Made by a program: the position numbers and the translations under genes. The notes under the pieces were generated by a model, which saw only the letters and a list, made by a program, of their open reading frames with translations, had not been told where the DNA came from and did no database searches. Shown piece after piece: positions 42,348 through 61,478 of a DNA stretch of 64,000 nt. How positions within the stretch are numbered: position 1 is the first letter of the stretch; every line of letters begins with the position of its first letter. Source of the DNA: Bryobacterales bacterium. Lineage in GTDB: Bacteria > Acidobacteriota > Terriglobia > Bryobacterales > UBA6623. The stretch spans positions 608,001 through 672,000 of the forward strand of contig OY729428.2 of assembly GCA_963422375.2 (NCBI GenBank). The letters run 5' to 3'.

Positions 42348-43403
42348 ATGGCAGGCTGTCACCGAGGTCGGTCCGCGATCTCGCTCGGTCGCGGCGCGCC
42401 GCGACCGCTGGCCGCCCTCGCCGCCTGCGCCGGGCTGCTCGCCGGTGTCGCGGGCGGCGGGGCGACGGAACGCGACTTCGAGCGACTGGTCGCCGAGGAG
42501 CCCCACATGGGGACTGTGGTGCGGATCGAAGCCTACATCCCCGGGGACGCGAGCGCTCCCAAGGCGTTCCGGGCCGCCTTCGACCGGATCGGATTCCTAG
42601 CGCGCAAGTTCTCGAGCTACCGGGAGGATTCCGAACTGCGGCAGGTCGAGAAGCGGGCGGGCCGCGCGCGGGTTTCCGTCTCCCACGAGTTCGCGTTCTT
42701 GCTCGGAGCGGCCCTGCGGATCGCTCGCGAGTCCGGAGGCGCGTTCGACCCCACGGTGGGCCGGGTGACCCGGCTCGCTCGCGCGGACGGATGGCGACGC
42801 GAGGGCCCGTCGGCGCGAGCCCTGCGCGAGGCGTGGCGGCGCACGGGGTGGCGGCGCGTGCGTCTTGACGAGACCAGCCGAAGCGTCCGCTTCGCCCGAC
42901 GGGGGATGCAGCTTGACCTAGGCGGAATCGCCAAAGGGTACATCGCCGACGAGGCGCTCGAGGCGCTCGCCAAGGCGGGGGCGCATCGGGCGATGGTTGC
43001 CGTGGCGGGCGACATCGCGGCGGGTGATCCGCCGCCGGGCGACTCCGGGTGGAGGATCGGCGTAGACGCCTCCGGGCCCGCCGGAAGCGTGGAGCGCCAC
43101 CTCCTGCTGGCCCGCCAAGCGGTGTCGGCGTCGGGAAGCCGGGAGCGACACTTCTACTCGGGCGGCCGCCGCTGCTCGCACATCGTCAACCGCAGGTCTC
43201 CCGAATGCACGGAGTCCCGGTCCGCGGTCAGCGTCGTCGCGCCGACCGGGCTGCTCGCGGACGGGCTGGCGACAGCCCTCGCCGCTCTGGGGCCGGACCG
43301 GGCCGAGCCGCTGCTGGCGAGGCATCCGGAAGTCGTCGCGTACTGGTCCGCCGACGGCCCCGGCGGGACCGAGGCAAGCGCCCGTTCGGGCCGGGAGCGA
43401 TGA
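42348..43403 (+). CDS. apbE: FAD:protein FMN transferase (ApbE family)
   Basis: [31 protein letters not shown]. Confidence 0.9.
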
Positions 43404-43811: not shown

Positions 43812-45037
43812 TCATCGCCAACTCAGACGTTTGCCGACGGTACCGCGGTCATGGCCGAGGTTCGAGGCTACCGCAAGCGCGTTGAGAGCCTGCAAGATGT
43901 TGATCGGGGCGATTGCGTCCGCATCGCCGGAGTAGCCGCAGAGCTTGCACGCGTACCTCTTGCTCTGGCGATGGCTCGCCTCCACCTCGGCGCAGCGATG
44001 GCACCGCCGCGACGTATAGGCGGGATCGACTTGCTCGAAGATGCGACCGGCCCGCTCTGCCTTGCATGCAAGCTGCCCTTGCGACAATCCACGGGACTGG
44101 CTCGGAATCGAGCGACTCAAGCCAGCCTTGTGCCTGACGTTCGATCCGGTCGCCTCGGCCGTGCCCTTCGGGGAACGAGTCATGGCGTTGATCCTCAAGT
44201 CCGCGGCAACCAGCGCGCCGTGCCGGTGGACCAGGCGCGTGGAGGCGCGATGGCGGGCATTGCGCTTCGACTCATGCCGCTTCCCATGCACCCTCGCCAG
44301 CGGGCGCACGCGCTTGCTGCGAGTCCGGCGGCCCTTCTTGCACCGCCCGACCGCCCGGCTGCGCTTGCGGATCGTCTGGCGTTGCTGCGAATCGTCCACT
44401 CTCGTGACCCGCTCGCCCTCGCGGGTGGCGAGTTGATCCGCCACGCCCAGGTCGATACCGATGGCCGGGCCGCTCGGCGCCAGCGGCTGCTCGTCCGCGC
44501 CGTCGAGCACGAGATCGACATTGATGCCGACATCCGTGCGAGTGGTGCGCACGAGCTTCGGCTCGAGAGTCGGAACCTCCCGCTGCGGCTCGACAGCGAC
44601 CCTTGGCAGACCCTTGATCCGCGGGACGTAGCGACCGTTGCCGCGTGCCCATAGCGTCGGAGAACGCAAGCACTCAATCGCGCGCAACCGGCTGGTCAGC
44701 TTGAATCGCGGAAAGCCCTGCTTCGCGCCGTCCCTGCGGGGCTGGAAGAAGGCATTGAACACCTTGTCCACGCGAGACGGCGTGGCTTCGAGCACATTCC
44801 CGTAGACGCTGCCGAGCTGGTCGAGCTCCGCCTTGCGAAGCTGGGGCAGGCATTCGGATTGGTCGAAGTACGTGACAGACTTGGAGCGCTCCTCCCAGGC
44901 CGCCTTCCTCCCGGCTAGCGCCGAGTTGTAGAGCCAGCGCAACCAGCCCGGCACGGCATCGATGCGAGCGCATCCGGACTTGCGACACTACCCGCGCTCT
45001 TGGATTGTGACCGTAGCGTAGCCGTCACTGGCTTCAT
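43812..45037 (-). pseudogene. tnpB: Solo TnpB (IS200/IS605 RNA-guided nuclease), degenerate
   Basis: LYNSAL, GFPRFK, RuvC-I GIDLG, Zn finger CHRC/CKLC, DAD.IA.INIL; in-frame TAG at 44988-44990 and 5-bp duplication at 45013-45022; no tnpA. Confidence 0.88.
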
Positions 45038-45155: not shown

Positions 45156-46843
45156 GTGCAGATCATCGCCAAGGACGACCGCATCTACGAGGCCGTAGTC
45201 GTCGGCTCCGGCGCGACAGGCGGCTGGGTGGCCAAGACGCTGGCCGAGGCCGGAATGCGCGTGGCCCTGCTGGAAGCCGGGCATCGCACGACCGAGGCCG
45301 AATTCACCGAGCATCTGCGGGCCTACGACCTCAAGTACCGAGGCAGGTCCCCGGAAATCGCCCGCAACCGTCGCATCCAAAGCATGAAATACGCCTGCCG
45401 GGAGTCGAACTTCGAATGGTTCGTCGACGACGTCAAGAATCCCTACACCTACCCCGAGGGCAAGCCTTCCAGTGGACCCGCGGCCGCCAGCTCGGCGGCC
45501 GTTCGCTGACGTGGGCCCGCCAGAGCTACCGCCTCTCCCCGCTGGACTTCTCCGCCGCGAGCCATGACGGCTACGGCGAGAACTGGCCGGTGACCTACGA
45601 GGAGATGGTCCCCTACTACGAGAAGGTCGAGCGCTACGCGGGAATCAGCGGCGAACCGCTCGGCTTGATGCAGTTCCCGGACAGCGTCATGCAGCCCCCG
45701 ATGGCGATGACATGCGGCGAGAGGCACTTCAAGGACCGAGTCAGCGCTCGCTTCGACCGGCATGTCACGATCGGCCGGAGCGCGGTCCTGACCAAGGCGC
45801 TCAACGGGCGGCAGCCCTGCCATTACTGCGGGCCGTGCGAGCACGGCTGCGTCACGCATTCCTACTTCTCGAGCCTCTGGACGACGGTCGCCGACGCCGA
45901 GAGGTCGGGGAACTGCGACGTCCTGACCGATGCCGTCGTCTCGCACGTAACCGCTGACAGGAACTCGGGTCTCGCGAACGGCGTCGCCTACTTCGACCGG
46001 CTGACGCGCGCTCCGAGACAGATTCGAGCGAAGGCGGTCGTCCTGTCGGCGTCCGCCTTGGAATCGACGCGCATCCTGCTGAATTCGGGCAAGGGCTTCT
46101 GCAATTCGTCCGGCGCTCTCGGCCGCTACGTGATGGATCACATGTACGGCGGGGTTTCGGGAGTCCTGCCCGTGAAGGAAGACAGGAGGTGGGCCGGCCC
46201 TCCGAGCCGCCCCAACGGGCTGTACCTGCCGCGCTACCTCAATGTCGACCGCTCCCACACTGACGGCATGATTCGCGGCTTCGGCGCCCAGATGCGCAAC
46301 GGCTCCAGCTACGGCTCCCCCGGCGCGATCACCCGCGTGCCCGGCTTCGGGGCCCGCTTCAAGCAGGCGGTGCGCGAGTCGGAGAACTGGTGGCGCTTCG
46401 GGATCAGCACGTCAAGCGAGTGCCTGGCCCGCCACGAGAACTACGTCGAGCTCGACCCTCATGTCAGGGACGCTTGGGGCATTCCGGCGCTCCGGATGAA
46501 CGTGACTTGGGGAGACAACGAGATACGCTTGTTCCGGTACTCGGCGGACGCCGGCGAGGAAATGCTGCGGGCCGCCGGCGCCCGTGACATCCGCAAGATC
46601 GAGACCCCGCGCTGGCCCGGCGGCGCCACCCACGAGGTCGGGGCGGCGCGCATGGGGAACGACCCGCGCAAGTCCGTCCTCAACAAGTGGAACCAAGCTC
46701 ACGACTTGAGAAACTTATTCGTGACGGACGGTGCCGCGTTTGTGTCGATCGGCTGCGTGAATCCGACGCTGACGATGATGGCCCTCGCCCTCCGAGCATC
46801 GGAGTACCTCGTGGACGCTGCCAAGCGCGGCGATCTAGGCTGA
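45156..46843 (+). pseudogene. GMC-family flavoprotein oxidoreductase with one frameshift (or sequence error)
   Basis: VVGSGATGG in ORF 45156; after a shift near 45465, LGGRSLTW, CHYCGPC, HEVGAARMG, NPTLTMMAL in ORF ending 46843. Confidence 0.85.
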
Positions 46844-48378: not shown

Positions 48379-49261
48379 CTACAAGCGGCCGGAGGGACCG
48401 CTGACAGGAGATCCGCCAGTGACCTGAAAGATGCCAAGGCCGAACATGCCGGGAATGGCAAACGGAAGAGCGCCGAGCTCCGCCCGCAGAGGAGCCTCCA
48501 AGTCCTTGAGACCGAAATTCTCTCGCGTCACCAGTCCCTGCCCCGCCATCAGATCGTCCATCCCGCGTACCGAGTACGCGCTGCGCATCGGCTCGTAGCA
48601 CGAGTCGACCAAGGCCAAGAGCGCTTCCCGAATCCGTCGGCAGCGCGGATCGGAAGAATCCTAGTCCAGCAAGTAGTCCACAGCCACACGTGTCCCGGGA
48701 GCCAGGCGCGTCGCGATGGAACTGGCGGCTTGCGCCAGCTCACCGGGCGTCAGGCAGTGGGCCACGCCCAGCATCGAGACGAGGGCGGGCTGCGAAGCGT
48801 CCAACGCCGAGCCGTCCATCGCATCGGCCACCGGGACGTCGGCCAGATCGGCCGCTACGGATGCGACCAAGCTTCCTTTCCTGCTCCCGCGGGCGGTCGA
48901 TCTCGAAGACGGCCGCGCGCCCCAGCGGGTCGGCCCGGCGCCAAGCGAAGGAATCCATGCCGGCACTCACGATGACGCACTGGGCCACTCCTTCCCGGAT
49001 CGCCTCTTCCAGCGCCTGCTCAACGTAGCGAGCCCGTACCACCACGCTCATGCTCGCCGGCACGATCAGGCCCAGCCAGTACCTCGTCACGAGCCACCCT
49101 AGTGAGCAGTACCGCAGCGCGAGGCCGAGCGCGGGCCCGCAGGGCAGCCTCGGGTACGGATCGCGCATCACGGGCGAGCGGTAGAGCAGGTGCCATGCCC
49201 GCTCGAATGCCACGAAGTCCGCCTTGGAAGGGGCCCAGTGCCTGCTGCCTGGCATTTGCAC
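48379..49261 (-). pseudogene. Class I SAM-dependent methyltransferase (LCM/ML2640-like), fragmented
   Basis: RARYVE, QCVIVSAGMDSFAWR, VFEID, VAADL, MLGV spread over three ORFs. Confidence 0.8.
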
Positions 49262-49822: not shown

Positions 49823-50818
49823 ATGCCGAGCATGGAGTTCAGAATCCGAGTTCGTCGAGCGGCTCTGCGCCTGCACCGCTCGATCCGCGAGGCGCGGATG
49901 ATCGCCAAGGCGCTGGTGGACACCGACCATCCGGTGCTGGCGCACCTAATTCCTACCCGGCGCTGCAACATCGCTTGCGCGTACTGCAACGAGTACGACG
50001 ACTTCTCGCGGCCGGTGCCGATCGACGTCCTCTGCCGCCGGACCGACCGCCTCGCGGACCTAGGCGTCAGCGTCGTCACGCTCAGCGGCGGCGAGCCGAT
50101 GCTCCATCCGCAGCTCGACGACCTGATCCGCCGCATCCGGGAGCGCAGGATGATCGCTGGCCTGATCACCAACGGGTACCTGCTCGGGCCCCGTCGCATC
50201 AGGCAGCTCAACGACGCAGGCCTGGAGTACCTCCAGATCAGCATCGACAATGTCGTGCCCGACGAGACGTCCATGAAGAGCTTGCGCGTGCTGGACCAAA
50301 AGCTCGCCATGCTATCCGAGCACGCCGACTTCGACGTGAACATCAACTCCGTGGTGGGCGCAGGCATCCCGAATCCCGGGGACGCCTATGCGGTGGCTCG
50401 GCGGGCGCTGGATCTCGGCTTCACCAGCACCGTCGGAGTCATCCACGACAGCGACGGCCAGCTGCGGCCGCTAGGAAGGACCGAACGGCAGGTTTACAAC
50501 CAAGTCAAGGCCCTCTCCAAGCGCGGCTACAGCCGCCTGACTTTCTTCCAGGACAATCTCGTGGAAGGAAGAACGAACAAGTGGTCCTGCCGGGCGGGCG
50601 CCCGCTACCTCTACGTGTGCGAGGACGGCCTGGTCCACTACTGCTCGCAGCAGAGAGGCACCCCGGGCATTCCCTTGGAAGAATACGGCGTCGCGGACAT
50701 TCGCGGGGCGTACAAGACACCCAAGTCCTGCGCTCCGGCCTGCACGGTGTCGTGCGTCCACAAGGCGTCCGCCGTGGACTTCTGGCGGGATCACCACCGG
50801 CCCCCCGCCCGAGTTTGA
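49823..50818 (+). CDS. Radical SAM protein with Cys-rich C-terminal (SPASM/twitch-like) region
   Basis: CNIACAYC, SGGEP, ITNG, ISID; CRAG..C..C..CAPACTVSC. Confidence 0.9.
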   Translation: MPSMEFRIRVRRAALRLHRSIREARMIAKALVDTDHPVLAHLIPTRRCNIACAYCNEYDDFSRPVPIDVLCRRTDRLADLGVSVVTLSGGEPMLHPQLDDLIRRIRERRMIAGLITNGYLLGPRRIRQLNDAGLEYLQISIDNVVPDETSMKSLRVLDQKLAMLSEHADFDVNINSVVGAGIPNPGDAYAVARRALDLGFTSTVGVIHDSDGQLRPLGRTERQVYNQVKALSKRGYSRLTFFQDNLVEGRTNKWSCRAGARYLYVCEDGLVHYCSQQRGTPGIPLEEYGVADIRGAYKTPKSCAPACTVSCVHKASAVDFWRDHHRPPARV

Positions 50819-50838: not shown

Positions 50839-52170
50839 TCAATCGGTCGGCAGCCAGCCGCAGTCCCTGCCCTCCGCGCATAGAAACACGCGACCCCCGG
50901 GAATCGGGTGCGCCCGCGCCCAAGCCTCGCCGTTGACGAGCAGCGCCGTCGACCAAGCCTCCGTGTCGATGGCCAGCGGGGCGATAACAGAAACCGCGGC
51001 CACTCCGGCCGCGGGCCGCCCCGAGCGGGGATCGATAATGTGGCCGTATCGCTTCCCGCCCTTCTCGAAGAACGATTCGTACGACCCCGATGCCGAAAGC
51101 GCCTCGTCCCTTAGAGTCACGGTGGCCACCGGCCTGCCGTCGCTCCGCGGGCCGCGCAGGTCCAAGCTCCATCCCCCGCCGTCCGGAGGCGCCCCTAGCG
51201 CGAACACGCTGCTGCCGCCCGAGCTGACCAGCGCGGCCTCGATGCCCCGCGCGCGAAGAGCTGCGACCGCCCGGTCCACCGCGTAACCCTTCCCGATCCC
51301 GCCCGGATCCAGCAAAAGGCTCGACCGCCGGAATCGAACGGTGCGCTCGTGCCGGTTCAACTCGAGGTGGCGGTAGCCGCTGTTCCGCCGGGCCCGCCAG
51401 AGGGTCCAAGGCCACGGCATGACCCCATCGCCCTTGTAGAATCCCCACGCGCTGACCAAGGCCCCGACCGTGATGTCGAAGGCCCCTTCGGTTTCCCGCG
51501 CATAGCGCAGGCAGCGGTCGAGCAGGTCCGCCATCTCCGGCGAGATCTTGACCGGGCCGCGGGCCGCCTCGCGGTTGATGCGGCTGAGCTCGCTGTCCTG
51601 CTTGTAATTGCTCAGGAAGGCGTCCACGCGGCGGGCCTCGTCAAAGGCCGCGGTGACCGCGCCGGCCGCCGCGCTCTTGGTGGATGCGTAGCAAGCGATG
51701 CGGAACTCGCTGCCCATGATGGCCGACGACAACTCCAAGCGCTCCAACCCGAGCGCGTAGGCTGGCGAGGCGAACTGCAGGGCCGTCGCGGCCAAGACGG
51801 CAGCCAGTCCCTTGCGGATCCGCTTGCGGATCCGATCCAGCAGCTCGTCCATGCGCCGCGCATGCCGCTCTCCCAGGTCGAGCGCGAAGCGCAGCTCCGG
51901 GACGTGGCGCATGCGCAGGCTCTGCGCCAGCGCCTTGCGAATGAAGGGGGTGGCCCGCTCCAGCGCCTCCACCGGCCGCGGGTCCGCTTCCGCAGGGGTC
52001 GCCGGATCCCACGGCGCGACGAAGACGCGGGCGGAGCGCTTGTCCGGCGACAAGACAACCCGGCTTACACGCACGGCCGCCACGTCCGGGTCGCGAACTT
52101 CGCCCGCCACGATCCGCGTCAGCTCCCGCAGAAGCGTGCTCTCGGCGCGGTCGTGCCTGAACGACGGCAT
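50839..52170 (-). CDS. rbfA: Fusion: ribosome-binding factor A (aa ~1-116) + signal/TM segment + ApbE flavin transferase
   Basis: RbfA: EVRDP, VVLSPDKRSARVFV, LRMRHVPELRF..D; ApbE: IMGS, FDITVG, LDPGGIGKGY, SGSYE, HIIDPRSG; one ORF. Confidence 0.88.
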   Translation of the reverse strand: MPSFRHDRAESTLLRELTRIVAGEVRDPDVAAVRVSRVVLSPDKRSARVFVAPWDPATPAEADPRPVEALERATPFIRKALAQSLRMRHVPELRFALDLGERHARRMDELLDRIRKRIRKGLAAVLAATALQFASPAYALGLERLELSSAIMGSEFRIACYASTKSAAAGAVTAAFDEARRVDAFLSNYKQDSELSRINREAARGPVKISPEMADLLDRCLRYARETEGAFDITVGALVSAWGFYKGDGVMPWPWTLWRARRNSGYRHLELNRHERTVRFRRSSLLLDPGGIGKGYAVDRAVAALRARGIEAALVSSGGSSVFALGAPPDGGGWSLDLRGPRSDGRPVATVTLRDEALSASGSYESFFEKGGKRYGHIIDPRSGRPAAGVAAVSVIAPLAIDTEAWSTALLVNGEAWARAHPIPGGRVFLCAEGRDCGWLPTD

Positions 52171-53144
52171 TCCTCGTGCCCATCATGGCACAGGGCTTCC
52201 GGCCCGCGGGACGTAGGAACGGCGGGGAGCGCGGCGGGGAGACGCGGCGACAGGATCGAATCGGGCGGAAACCGAAGCGGATCGGAGTTGAGCGAATCCG
52301 GGCTCAAGCCAGATTCATCTGCCCCCAACACTTGGCGAGGAGCGGGCGGACTGGATGGCATGCAGGTACTCTTCGCCGGCCCGGTCAACCGGCCGCCGTA
52401 CTCCCGTGCGTGCGAATTCCGAGCAGTGCAGTGCGCAGGACAGGAAACCATCATGGCGGTCGGCTCGCCTTGCCCGCCGAAGGTGAGTTTCCGCCCTACC
52501 CTTCGCGCCTCTTGGACTCGATTACCGACACTATTCTTCGCAGAAATTCTTTGCAGAATGCGATCTCAACTAGAGGCACCAATAGGCTTCTACTTCGACT
52601 GACTCGTAGATTCATTGTCTTTCAGTCGTGACAGCCATCGCCGAAAGACTTCACCGAAATCGCTGGCGAGACCGTTCTGGGCGGGGTGGCGCCGGGCCGC
52701 CACTTGCCAGCGAAGCGCTGGATCGCCTGCCTGCTCGACGCCGGCACCGCGGTCACGCTTGCGCGGCGATCGACCGGCCCTCGAAGGGAAGGTCGCTCAA
52801 GCGTTCGAAGCGCGCGAGGGCCTTGGGCAGGGACACCGGGCGGCGGCAGTCCACGCGGGCCGCTCGCAGCAGCGTCACGCCGCAGAGCGCAGTAGCGCCC
52901 GAAGGGCCGCCTCCGGCTCAAGCGGACGACCGCCGGTCTGAGGCGGGACAGCGCACGGCGGTGACCGGGAAGGCATTCGCGTTGCCCCTGACGCCTGCCG
53001 ACATGTCCTCCGGCGCCAGCTCGTGCAGGCCTGGCACCGCGGGCGGCAGCGGCGGGAATCGCAGCGCGGTCCGCACACAAGCCGCGCGGCCGCGGACCGC
53101 CCCGCAGGGAGCCGGTGTGCAATTCTGAGAAGAGTGGGGCGTGC

Positions 53145-53816
53145 GTGGAGGAAGGCGGTTCGGGGGAGACGATCGCGCTCGCGCTAGAGGTCGCGGGGGA
53201 CGGAGACGCGCTGCGCTCCATCTCCGATGTGATCGCCAGACGGGGCGCTCGCGTCACGTGGATCTCGATACTTGACCCGCAGAAGGTCATCGAGACGATT
53301 CTGGTGGAGCTGGTCGGCGTGCCGGACCTGCCCAGCCTGGTCGCGGCGCTCCACGCGCTCGACTGCGTGCGCTCCGCGTCGAGGAAGCACGCGCTGCATC
53401 AGATTTTCGGCAAGCGTATCATCATCATCGGCGGCGGTTCGCAAGTGGGCCAAGTCGCCCTAGGCGCCGTGTCCGAGGCGGACCGGCACAACCTCCGCGG
53501 CGAGCGGATCTCGATCGACACGATTCCGCTGGTCGGGGAGCCGCGACTGGCGGAGGCGGTCCGCGCCACGGCGAGGCTCCCGCGCGTGGAAGCGGTCGTC
53601 CTGGCCGGAGCCCTGATGGGCGGAGAGATCACGGAGGCGGTGAAAGAAGTGCAGGCCAAGGGCCTGCTGGTGATCTCGCTCAACATGGCAGGCTCGGTGC
53701 CGGCCGCGGCCGACCTCGTCGTGACGGACCCGGTCCAGGCCGGCGTCATGGCGGTCATGGCGGTGGCCCACACCGCGGAATTCGACGTCCCGAGGCTCGG
53801 CGGACGCCGCTTCTGA
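53145..53816 (+). CDS. ACT-domain / DUF5612-like protein
   Basis: IFGKRIIIIGGGSQV, EADRHNLRGERISIDTIPLVGE, SLNMAGSV, VTDPVQAGVMAVM. Confidence 0.78.
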   Translation: MEEGGSGETIALALEVAGDGDALRSISDVIARRGARVTWISILDPQKVIETILVELVGVPDLPSLVAALHALDCVRSASRKHALHQIFGKRIIIIGGGSQVGQVALGAVSEADRHNLRGERISIDTIPLVGEPRLAEAVRATARLPRVEAVVLAGALMGGEITEAVKEVQAKGLLVISLNMAGSVPAAADLVVTDPVQAGVMAVMAVAHTAEFDVPRLGGRRF

Positions 53817-60533: not shown

Positions 60534-61478
60534 TCAGCCGGTGCTCTTCGCGCGGCGGTCGCCCGCCCCCGCTGCCTCGTTGACGGCGACCCGCGCGAGA
60601 CGATCACAGCGCTTGGTGTCCGTGCGATCAGGCCCCTTGTTCGCGCCGTCCCAGGTCACGCGATGCCTCGCGACGGCGGATTGCAACTCCCGCCAGAGGT
60701 CCGCGTTCTTGACCGAATCGCCGGAAGCGGTCTTCCAGCCGCGGCGCTCCCAGCCGTGAATCCAGCTCGTGGCACCGTTCCTGACGTAATCGGAATCGAG
60801 CTCCACGGTGACGTTGCACGGTTTCCGTAGGGCCTTGAGGCCGGCGATCACCGCGGTCAAGTGCAGCCGGTTGCTCGTGGTCCGTCTCTCGGACCCGCAC
60901 AATTCCTTCTCGTCGGCTCCGTATTGCAGGATCGCCGCCCAGCCCCCCGGCCCGGGGCTGCTCGCACATGTGCCGCCCGCGATGATCCTGACCTGCTTGC
61001 CGGCATCGATGGCGTCCGGGGCCGCATGCTTCGCCTGCTTGGCAGCTGCGCGGGCAAGGCGGTCGCAGCGGTTGTTGTCCGCGTGGTCGGCATGACCTTT
61101 CACCCAAGTCCAAGTCACCTCGTGCGTCGCAGCCGCCGACAGAAGCTCCTGCCAGAGGTCCGCGTTCTTCACCGGATCGCCGGAAGCTTTCCTCCAGCCT
61201 TGACTTATCCAGCCATGAATCCAAGTCGTGACTCCGTTCCGGACGTACTCCGAGTCCAGCTCCACATTGACTCGGTGCGGCCCGGAAAGGCGCTTAAGCC
61301 CCTGGATGACGGCGGTCATCTCCATGCGATTGTTGGTGGTCCATTTCTCGGAACCGCTGAGCTCCTGCTGCCGGTCCTTCCCGTCCTTGCGGTCGCGCAC
61401 GATGGCCGCCCAGCCGCCCGGGCCGGGATTGCCGAGACAGGAGCCGTCCGTGATGATCTTGGCACGCTTCATGCCCAA
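60534..61478 (-). CDS. rnhA: Ribonuclease HI with a second, degenerate RNase H domain
   Basis: Domain 1: TDGSCLGNPGPGGW, TTNNRME, DSEYV, VKNADLW, WVKGH, NNRCD; domain 2 repeats the scaffold. Confidence 0.93.
   Translation of the reverse strand: MGMKRAKIITDGSCLGNPGPGGWAAIVRDRKDGKDRQQELSGSEKWTTNNRMEMTAVIQGLKRLSGPHRVNVELDSEYVRNGVTTWIHGWISQGWRKASGDPVKNADLWQELLSAAATHEVTWTWVKGHADHADNNRCDRLARAAAKQAKHAAPDAIDAGKQVRIIAGGTCASSPGPGGWAAILQYGADEKELCGSERRTTSNRLHLTAVIAGLKALRKPCNVTVELDSDYVRNGATSWIHGWERRGWKTASGDSVKNADLWRELQSAVARHRVTWDGANKGPDRTDTKRCDRLARVAVNEAAGAGDRRAKSTG

Follow-up and report, generated by a model that had tools for sequence, protein, structure and literature searches.

Can one bacterial gene serve both a protein that works inside the cell and one that works outside it? 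RbfA is a ribosome-maturation factor that acts inside the cell, ApbE is a flavin-attaching enzyme that is normally exported, and to our knowledge the partners in a bacterial gene fusion normally share a compartment. In the window analysed here, the whole 64,000-nucleotide stretch of a Bryobacterales genome, the two lie in a single reading frame. This raises the questions of whether the frame is real, how it arose and what products it would yield.

RbfA and ApbE share one continuous reading frame

The fused rbfA–apbE frame, P0001, encodes 443 residues with zero internal stops (Table 1). Pfam RBFA matches residues 5–111 (E 3.4e-22; 79 bits against a cut-off of 34.7), TIGR00082 rbfA matches at 69.8 against a cut-off of 51.15, and Pfam ApbE (PF02424) covers residues 152–418 (E 4.9e-72; 243 bits); both halves also resemble solved structures in sequence and in fold. 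The original prediction of a 443-residue RbfA–ApbE protein is thus borne out, and the junction elements that it named, RIRKRIRK, the hydrophobic segment GLAAVLAATALQF, A137-Y138-A139 and the exact 12-bp repeat, are all present. The stand-alone apbE that it listed also exists and is one of three apbE genes in the genome, together with the fused copy and a copy beside the nqr operon on contig C3. No rbfA was found outside the fusion when the 96% complete source genome was searched in six frames with Pfam and a clade-specific HMM.

An exact tandem repeat at the junction is the one feature that would suit an assembly artefact or a recent stop-codon loss in the source genome, the latter having been proposed with an ApbE start at Met107. 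The frame is nevertheless uninterrupted in 65 further genomes, which belong to two families, and is carried by 33 more protein clusters, and contigs from public sequencing runs show no differences at the junction. Specifically, assembled contigs of runs X1 and X3, possibly the source data, cover the whole stretch with 0 differences, and run X5, from a second study, provides one 602-base contig over the junction with 0 differences. Within the genus, the same frame is open between the two halves in 29 of 30 other genomes (28 at full length, one cut by a contig end), and the remaining genome (G021) has neither half. Among 67 non-redundant fused sequences with an ApbE score above 300, the residue at position 107 is Ile in 42, Val in 18 and Met in only 7. 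Artefact or recent stop loss is accordingly left with a negligible probability. The 12-bp duplication was likewise rejected as a cause or artefact, since a tandem repeat of at least 9 bp occurs at the junction in 0 of 29 other genus loci and the repeat adds no linker length relative to relatives; being private to the source genome, it loses the role once suggested for it. The fusion, joined through a signal-peptide-like linker, is genuine, old, clade-wide and unusual.

Table 1. The fused gene, its parts and other features of the window (positions in the window)
Feature	Position	Strand	Basis or remark
Fused rbfA–apbE ORF P0001, 443 aa	50839..52170	-	Domain matches; single frame kept in relatives
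RbfA domain, KH type II fold, the genome's only rbfA	51838..52158	-	Pfam 5–111; fold match
RbfA C-terminal helix, basic, residues 98–120	51811..51879	-	AlphaFold model, low confidence; charge
Exact 12-bp tandem repeat	51811..51834	.	Repeat check across genus loci; linker length
Hydrophobic h-region, residues 121–131, putative retained ApbE signal-peptide core	51778..51810	-	Linker statistics; dN/dS 0.14
Polar c-region, residues 132–139, candidate signal peptidase I site after Ala139	51754..51777	-	Sequence; hydrophobic-to-polar gradient
ApbE (FAD:protein FMN transferase) domain, residues 144–439	50854..51741	-	S361, H377, E404; C431/C437 pair
Extended -10-like motif	52182..52192	-	11 nt ahead of start codon; 29/29 genus loci
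Convergent radical SAM gene	49823..50818	+	Usual neighbour in genera g1 and g29
Separate apbE paralogue, own signal-like N-terminus, canonical Asp	42348..43403	+	Not part of the fusion
TnpB/IS605 OrfB-like gene	43812..44954	-
GMC oxidoreductase	45156..46843	+	Apparent start (45156–45509) in another frame than the main ORF
Leucine carboxyl methyltransferase-like gene	48661..49261	-	Apparently split over two frames
DUF5612 protein	53115..53816	+
ORF, presumably a tandem pair of RNase HI domains	60534..61478	-	From translation

The frame splits in the GMC oxidoreductase and methyltransferase-like genes are possibly frameshifts or assembly errors.

The fusion extends across two families of Bryobacterales

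The fusion was surveyed in 150 other genomes of the order, in tallies that take in four genomes flagged unpublished; the source genome belongs to family f1. RbfA lies in a frame of at least 436 aa in 59 of 60 matches in f1 (72 genomes scored) and in all six matches in f3 (7 scored), and in an unfused frame of at most 242 aa in all 71 matches in f2. All 65 long frames were retrieved, and each contains ApbE; in G119, the ApbE half breaks off at about two thirds. Two protein-cluster searches, which reach close relatives only, returned 33 and 31 other clusters, with both Pfam domains in every one. The ESM Atlas gave ordinary ApbE clusters only, at 0.84, and serves as a lead only. Records titled Bryobacteraceae or Solibacteraceae fall with f2 in the IF2 tree described below. 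One fused locus labelled g31 (L143, genome G122) has a linker identical to that of a g4 genome (compare L156, genome G077) and groups with g4 by IF2; bin contamination or a mislabel is possible.

Outside the order, a class-level sample of 122 genomes yielded 120 RbfA matches and a phylum-level sample of 140 genomes, overlapping with the first in some genomes, yielded 126. No ApbE fusion occurs among the three checked frames longer than 400 aa, and the remaining frames measure at most 316 aa. The long RbfA frames of G220 and G308 were discarded as candidates, being standalone RbfA with open upstream frames. An independent RbfA-DHH-DHHA1 fusion was seen in another class of the phylum (L222; G362:C166, 1267–2772, minus strand).

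The fused genes were probably operon neighbours

The usual gene order in f2, nusA-infB-DUF503-rbfA-apbE-hemE-(hemH)-hemY, places the two genes next to each other. The rbfA end in f2 consists of a basic helix and a short polar tail, and apbE starts with a typical signal peptide about 60–280 bases further on (817 in one gap). Across the f2 loci L045–L134, apbE is tightly linked to hemE-hemH-hemY, with stop and start codons often overlapping. The fused gene keeps its place behind infB-DUF503 in f3 and in most f1 genera; in genera g1, which includes the source genome, and g29, it has been relocated and faces a radical SAM gene. Hence the claim that infB neighbours are missing holds in g1 and g29, infB of the source genome being on another contig, and fails elsewhere, where the fusion sits within the nusA-infB-DUF503 operon.

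From the observed adjacency and junction, we infer the order of events. The genes would have been neighbours in a nusA-infB-DUF503-rbfA-apbE(-hemE) operon, and because the fused junction places the basic helix directly on a hydrophobic core, the RbfA tail, stop codon, spacer and ApbE start would have been lost, bringing the basic C-terminal helix of RbfA up against the signal-peptide core of ApbE. An IF2 tree of 40 rows, obtained by a quick search with L039 dropped as too short and g29 outside the sample, groups f1 with f3 and leaves f2 outside (SH-aLRT 92). The three families are unresolved in an ApbE tree of 46 selected rows, in which f1+f3 is not rejected (AU p 0.43). A first ApbE tree, built with distant paralogues, had nested f2 inside the fused families; this placement was lost with closer outgroups and was dropped. 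A single fusion event in the ancestor of f1 and f3 is the simplest reading; an older fusion with later fission in f2 may have occurred instead.

Several lineages depart from the fused state or from the ancestral pair. In G062 (L153), a stop follows RbfA and a 278-base gap precedes ApbE, whose frame has a signal-like segment and no clear start codon that we could see. Ten f1 genomes have no detectable rbfA (3/3 in g7, 1/1 in g3 and 6/7 in g31; loci L043, L044 and L175–L184), and four of them are single contigs; in all ten, the same gene for ApbE comes straight after DUF503 and begins with a free signal peptide. G108 has one weak rbfA match with two stops (E 0.04). Four f2 loci have lost apbE from the locus. 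Nothing observed links the two functions: adjacency came before fusion, and among relatives RbfA has been lost (f1), apbE has been lost from the locus (f2) or the two have separated again. No direct sign of the proposed connection of ribosome maturation to flavinylation in the envelope was seen, and either half is lost or uncoupled in some relatives; most likely, the fusion has been retained because it is workable and hard to undo, not because the functions are linked.

Both halves keep the fold of their family

The RbfA half adopts a KH type II fold matching 1jos, 8bxa and 7afq. The kink alanine (A73) is kept in 60 of 67 sequences, and position 76 is aromatic (F/Y/W) in 64, with Phe (F76) in 49 and Tyr in 13. 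E. coli RbfA Phe78 is reported to stack on the 3' end of 16S rRNA (PMC8177701), and the F76 aromatic is its predicted equivalent. The AxG kink reads ATP in the source genome, the third position being Gly in 31/67 and Pro in 27/67, and unfused relatives deviate at this kink too. A standalone cytoplasmic RbfA of about 13–15 kDa is not encoded as such, the ORF being fused; such a form may arise after processing. A complex prediction for the RbfA and ApbE parts returned no answer (score 0.00) and favours neither side.

The ApbE half gives a Foldseek E of about 1e-21 and a TM of about 0.8 over the target. The catalytic triad of V. cholerae ApbE is reported as S241/H257/D285 (PMC12052999). At the corresponding positions here, S361 is present in all 67 sequences and H377 in 66, and the Asp position is occupied by Glu404 in 66, as mapped by spacing on E. 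coli/Salmonella alignments. Glu404 lies in a D-[ST]-E-A-W motif that unfused orthologues share and most outgroup ApbEs lack, so the Asp-to-Glu change predates the fusion. C431 and C437 are both kept in 66/67. Neither DsbB (PF02600) nor VKOR (PF07884) was found in the 96% complete genome; the cysteine pair is thus not good evidence for a periplasmic disulfide, and this argument for a periplasmic location was set aside. No dedicated flavinylation target for the fused ApbE was found in the genome, where clear flavinylation motifs occur only in NqrC and NqrB, beside another apbE. According to the source for the V. cholerae triad, ApbE requires a periplasmic location and not a lipid anchor (PMC12052999).

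The linker resembles an internal signal peptide

Mean identity over the 67 fused sequences is 44% for RbfA, 57% for ApbE and only 23% for the linker, yet the layout of the linker is maintained. A net charge of at least +1 precedes the hydrophobic core in 65/67. The core itself, scored as a best 8-residue hydropathy of at least 2.3 within an uncharged run of at least 12 residues (Kyte-Doolittle values), is present in 66/67 fused linkers against 22/401 control windows from the ApbE domain. Unfused orthologues (n=58) carry typical signal peptides, and a hydrophobic-to-polar gradient follows in 62/66 fused and 54/57 unfused sequences. The best 8-residue window is 2.95 in fused linkers versus 3.28 in unfused signal peptides, a comparison of sequences that are not independent; the slightly weaker core could reflect relaxed export. 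Over 19 residues, the best hydropathy of the linker is 1.52 versus 2.58 for the anchor of the genome's NqrC, so that in this respect the linker is signal-peptide-like rather than anchor-like. In L046 (G044), also fused, some 45 extra Ala/Pro-rich residues lie between the h-region and ApbE and resemble the stretch found behind signal peptides of exported proteins.

Substitution rates were calculated from 33 of the 406 genus pairs, those whose synonymous sites are unsaturated (the pairs are not independent). dN/dS is lowest in the h-region and in ApbE (0.14 each), followed by RbfA residues 2–97 (0.17), the c-region (0.26) and the last RbfA helix (0.34). These values indicate purifying selection on both domains, the genome's only RbfA included, and on the hydrophobic core of the linker. 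Export of the ApbE half is suggested by the signal peptides of unfused orthologues, the kept n/h/c layout and an h-region dN/dS equal to that of ApbE, and is further favoured by the rbfA-less f1 genomes, in which this apbE is retained and its signal peptide stands free. In such an arrangement, the RbfA C-terminal helix (98–120) would double as the n-region of an internal signal peptide.

The source genome has the A-Y-A site of the original prediction, but across homologues AxA shows no enrichment (30/67 observed versus 26 expected from linker composition). Relaxed (-3,-1) sites occur in 60/67 versus 60.5 expected, which is not above composition either; this enrichment test also fails on true unfused signal peptides and thus has no power. 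A lipobox-like Cys was found in only 1/67 fused sequences and 1/58 unfused orthologues, and P0001 falls below the PRK10461 equivalog cut-off. A lipoprotein or Tat signal was rejected, as there is no lipobox and, by eye, no twin-arginine consensus in the linkers.

Topology and products of the fused gene

The reading that we favour, with a probability of about 0.55, is an N-in/C-out precursor that would be cut by signal peptidase I to release periplasmic ApbE; Sec insertion as such, with RbfA inside and ApbE outside, appears likely on the features of the linker. RbfA would fold in the cytoplasm, its basic helix would act as n-region, and ApbE would pass through Sec. Signal peptidase I would then cut the c-region (after Ala139 here), giving a soluble periplasmic ApbE as in unfused relatives. 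RbfA would be left on a signal-peptide stub, which RseP, by analogy, probably clips to yield free RbfA, and the outcome would be a two-product polyprotein made 1:1. The genome encodes the needed peptidase families, with two genes of the signal peptidase I family and three of the M50 (RseP) family. Precedents for the cutting steps have been reported: signal peptidase and then RasP act in turn on RsiV (PMC6066255), RsiP is cut by signal peptidase behind its cytoplasmic domain (PMC8844934), and RseP clears remnant signal peptides, with HA-MBP-tagged signal peptides as described substrates (PMC10470546).

The linker might instead remain whole, leaving a type II membrane protein with RbfA tethered inside and ApbE anchored on the periplasmic face; the linker would then replace the lipid anchor of ApbE, and 30S maturation would take place at the membrane. 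This arrangement, which we consider rather unlikely, would accommodate the uncharged run of the linker (mean 19 residues), the single helix over residues 100–129 in the AlphaFold model and a cleavage motif that is not demonstrably conserved, and most characterised ApbEs are described as membrane-anchored (PMC12052999). The linker has, however, gained neither length nor hydrophobicity over the ancestral signal peptide, and a polar Gln/Pro/Ser c-region has been kept. In addition, the C-terminal helix of S. aureus RbfA is reported to contact uS7 on the 30S subunit (PMC9917171). Here, 12–19 residues separate the R106 position from the membrane segment, with no spacer; the corresponding helix would run straight into the membrane, making a permanently tethered RbfA sterically awkward.

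In another reading, export was lost altogether: both domains would stay in the cytoplasm as one soluble protein, the linker would be vestigial, and ApbE would act on cytoplasmic targets or be a passenger. The folded 115-residue domain ahead of the signal, the slightly lower linker hydropathy and the failure to find DsbB or VKOR are compatible with it, as are the cytoplasmic ApbEs mentioned in the same source (PMC12052999). We nevertheless regard it as improbable: a vestigial linker would be expected to gain charges or shrink, yet all but one of the 67 keep the uncharged hydrophobic core, which is under purifying selection in a segment of such low identity, and in lineages where RbfA is lost or detached, this ApbE begins with a segment like a signal peptide.

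Two products could also be made during translation, by an internal start for exported ApbE or by a frameshift or early stop for free RbfA. An ATG, GTG or TTG lies near the linker in 50/67 sequences (up to h+3), including Met107 here. No start position is shared among them, any start upstream of the hydrophobic core is limited to 30/67, an upstream ATG to 8/67 and a Shine-Dalgarno-like site to 2, and 17 have no start at all. An internal start at Met107 was rejected on the residue distribution at this position given above, and a programmed frameshift for want of a conserved slippery site or stop: slippery heptamers occur in 4/67, and out-of-frame stops within codons 10–35 in 8 (-1) and 14 (+1) of 67. 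Translation as the source of both products is accordingly very unlikely.

Returning to the cleaved precursor, the fusion might be a selected device in which the supply of RbfA is tied to secretion capacity or envelope state via signal peptidase and RseP. We hold this to be doubtful; if true, regulated intramembrane proteolysis would act on ribosome biogenesis and not on a sigma factor.

An extended -10-like motif lies close to the rbfA start

In the printed upstream sequences of all 29 genus loci (L005–L033), an extended -10-like motif lies 10–11 nt ahead of the rbfA start, and the usual Shine-Dalgarno spacing is absent ahead of this start in the same 29 loci. The motif was not picked up by a two-hexamer scan. 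Genome-wide, extended -10-like motifs show a small peak 7 nt ahead of ATGs (11/440 sites). The arrangement suggests that the mRNA of this factor, which binds the anti-Shine-Dalgarno end of 16S rRNA, is nearly leaderless.

Significance and comparison with known systems

Both domains belong to known families. Their architecture, which places an export signal between a ribosome-maturation factor and an enzyme that is exported, is not described in the open-literature listings searched, and a literature search on bacterial internal-signal polyproteins returned mostly viral papers. Annotation by the larger domain hides rbfA, as in the source name 'thiamine biosynthesis lipoprotein'. A cytoplasmic ribosome-assembly factor and an exported enzyme are fused clade-wide, and the chain retains the export signal internally. 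A product that is cut would be a naturally occurring polyprotein of bacteria, matured by the housekeeping secretion machinery; one left whole would be a membrane-tethered RbfA, allowing a direct test of whether late 30S maturation can run at the membrane. Natural controls exist in relatives that are fused, unfused, re-split or RbfA-less.

Compared with known RbfA (PF02033, TIGR00082; PDB 1jos, 7afq, 8bxa/8byv), P0001 has the same KH type II fold with its C-terminal helix, apparent counterparts of the 16S-stacking Phe (F76) and of the kink Ala (A73), and the same ancestral place behind infB-DUF503; it differs in being fused to a signal peptide and ApbE, in its altered AxG kink and, in the source genus, in lying outside the infB operon. 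Compared with ApbE/Ftp (PF02424; PDB 3pnd, 4xgv, 6nxi, 4xdr), the whole fold, DxG..KG, the Ser and His of the triad and a signal-peptide-like N-terminal segment are kept, whereas here there is no lipobox, the signal segment is internal and D-x-E stands where E. coli ApbE has E-x-D, a trait common to unfused Bryobacterales orthologues.

Among other fusions, RbfA-DHH-DHHA1 (G362) likewise joins RbfA to the next operon gene, and in the ApbE-fumarate reductase reported from trypanosomes (PMC12052999) ApbE is likewise one domain of a larger protein; unlike P0001, both combine same-compartment partners and have no internal export signal. Parallels in layout are the anti-sigma factors RsiV and RsiP (PMC6066255; PMC8844934), described as having a cytoplasmic N-terminal domain, one membrane segment with a signal peptidase site and an extracytoplasmic domain, the cytoplasmic part being released in two steps. 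As reported there, they are regulated switches that destroy the cytoplasmic part, whereas the two parts of P0001 are housekeeping proteins, and both would be useful after cutting.
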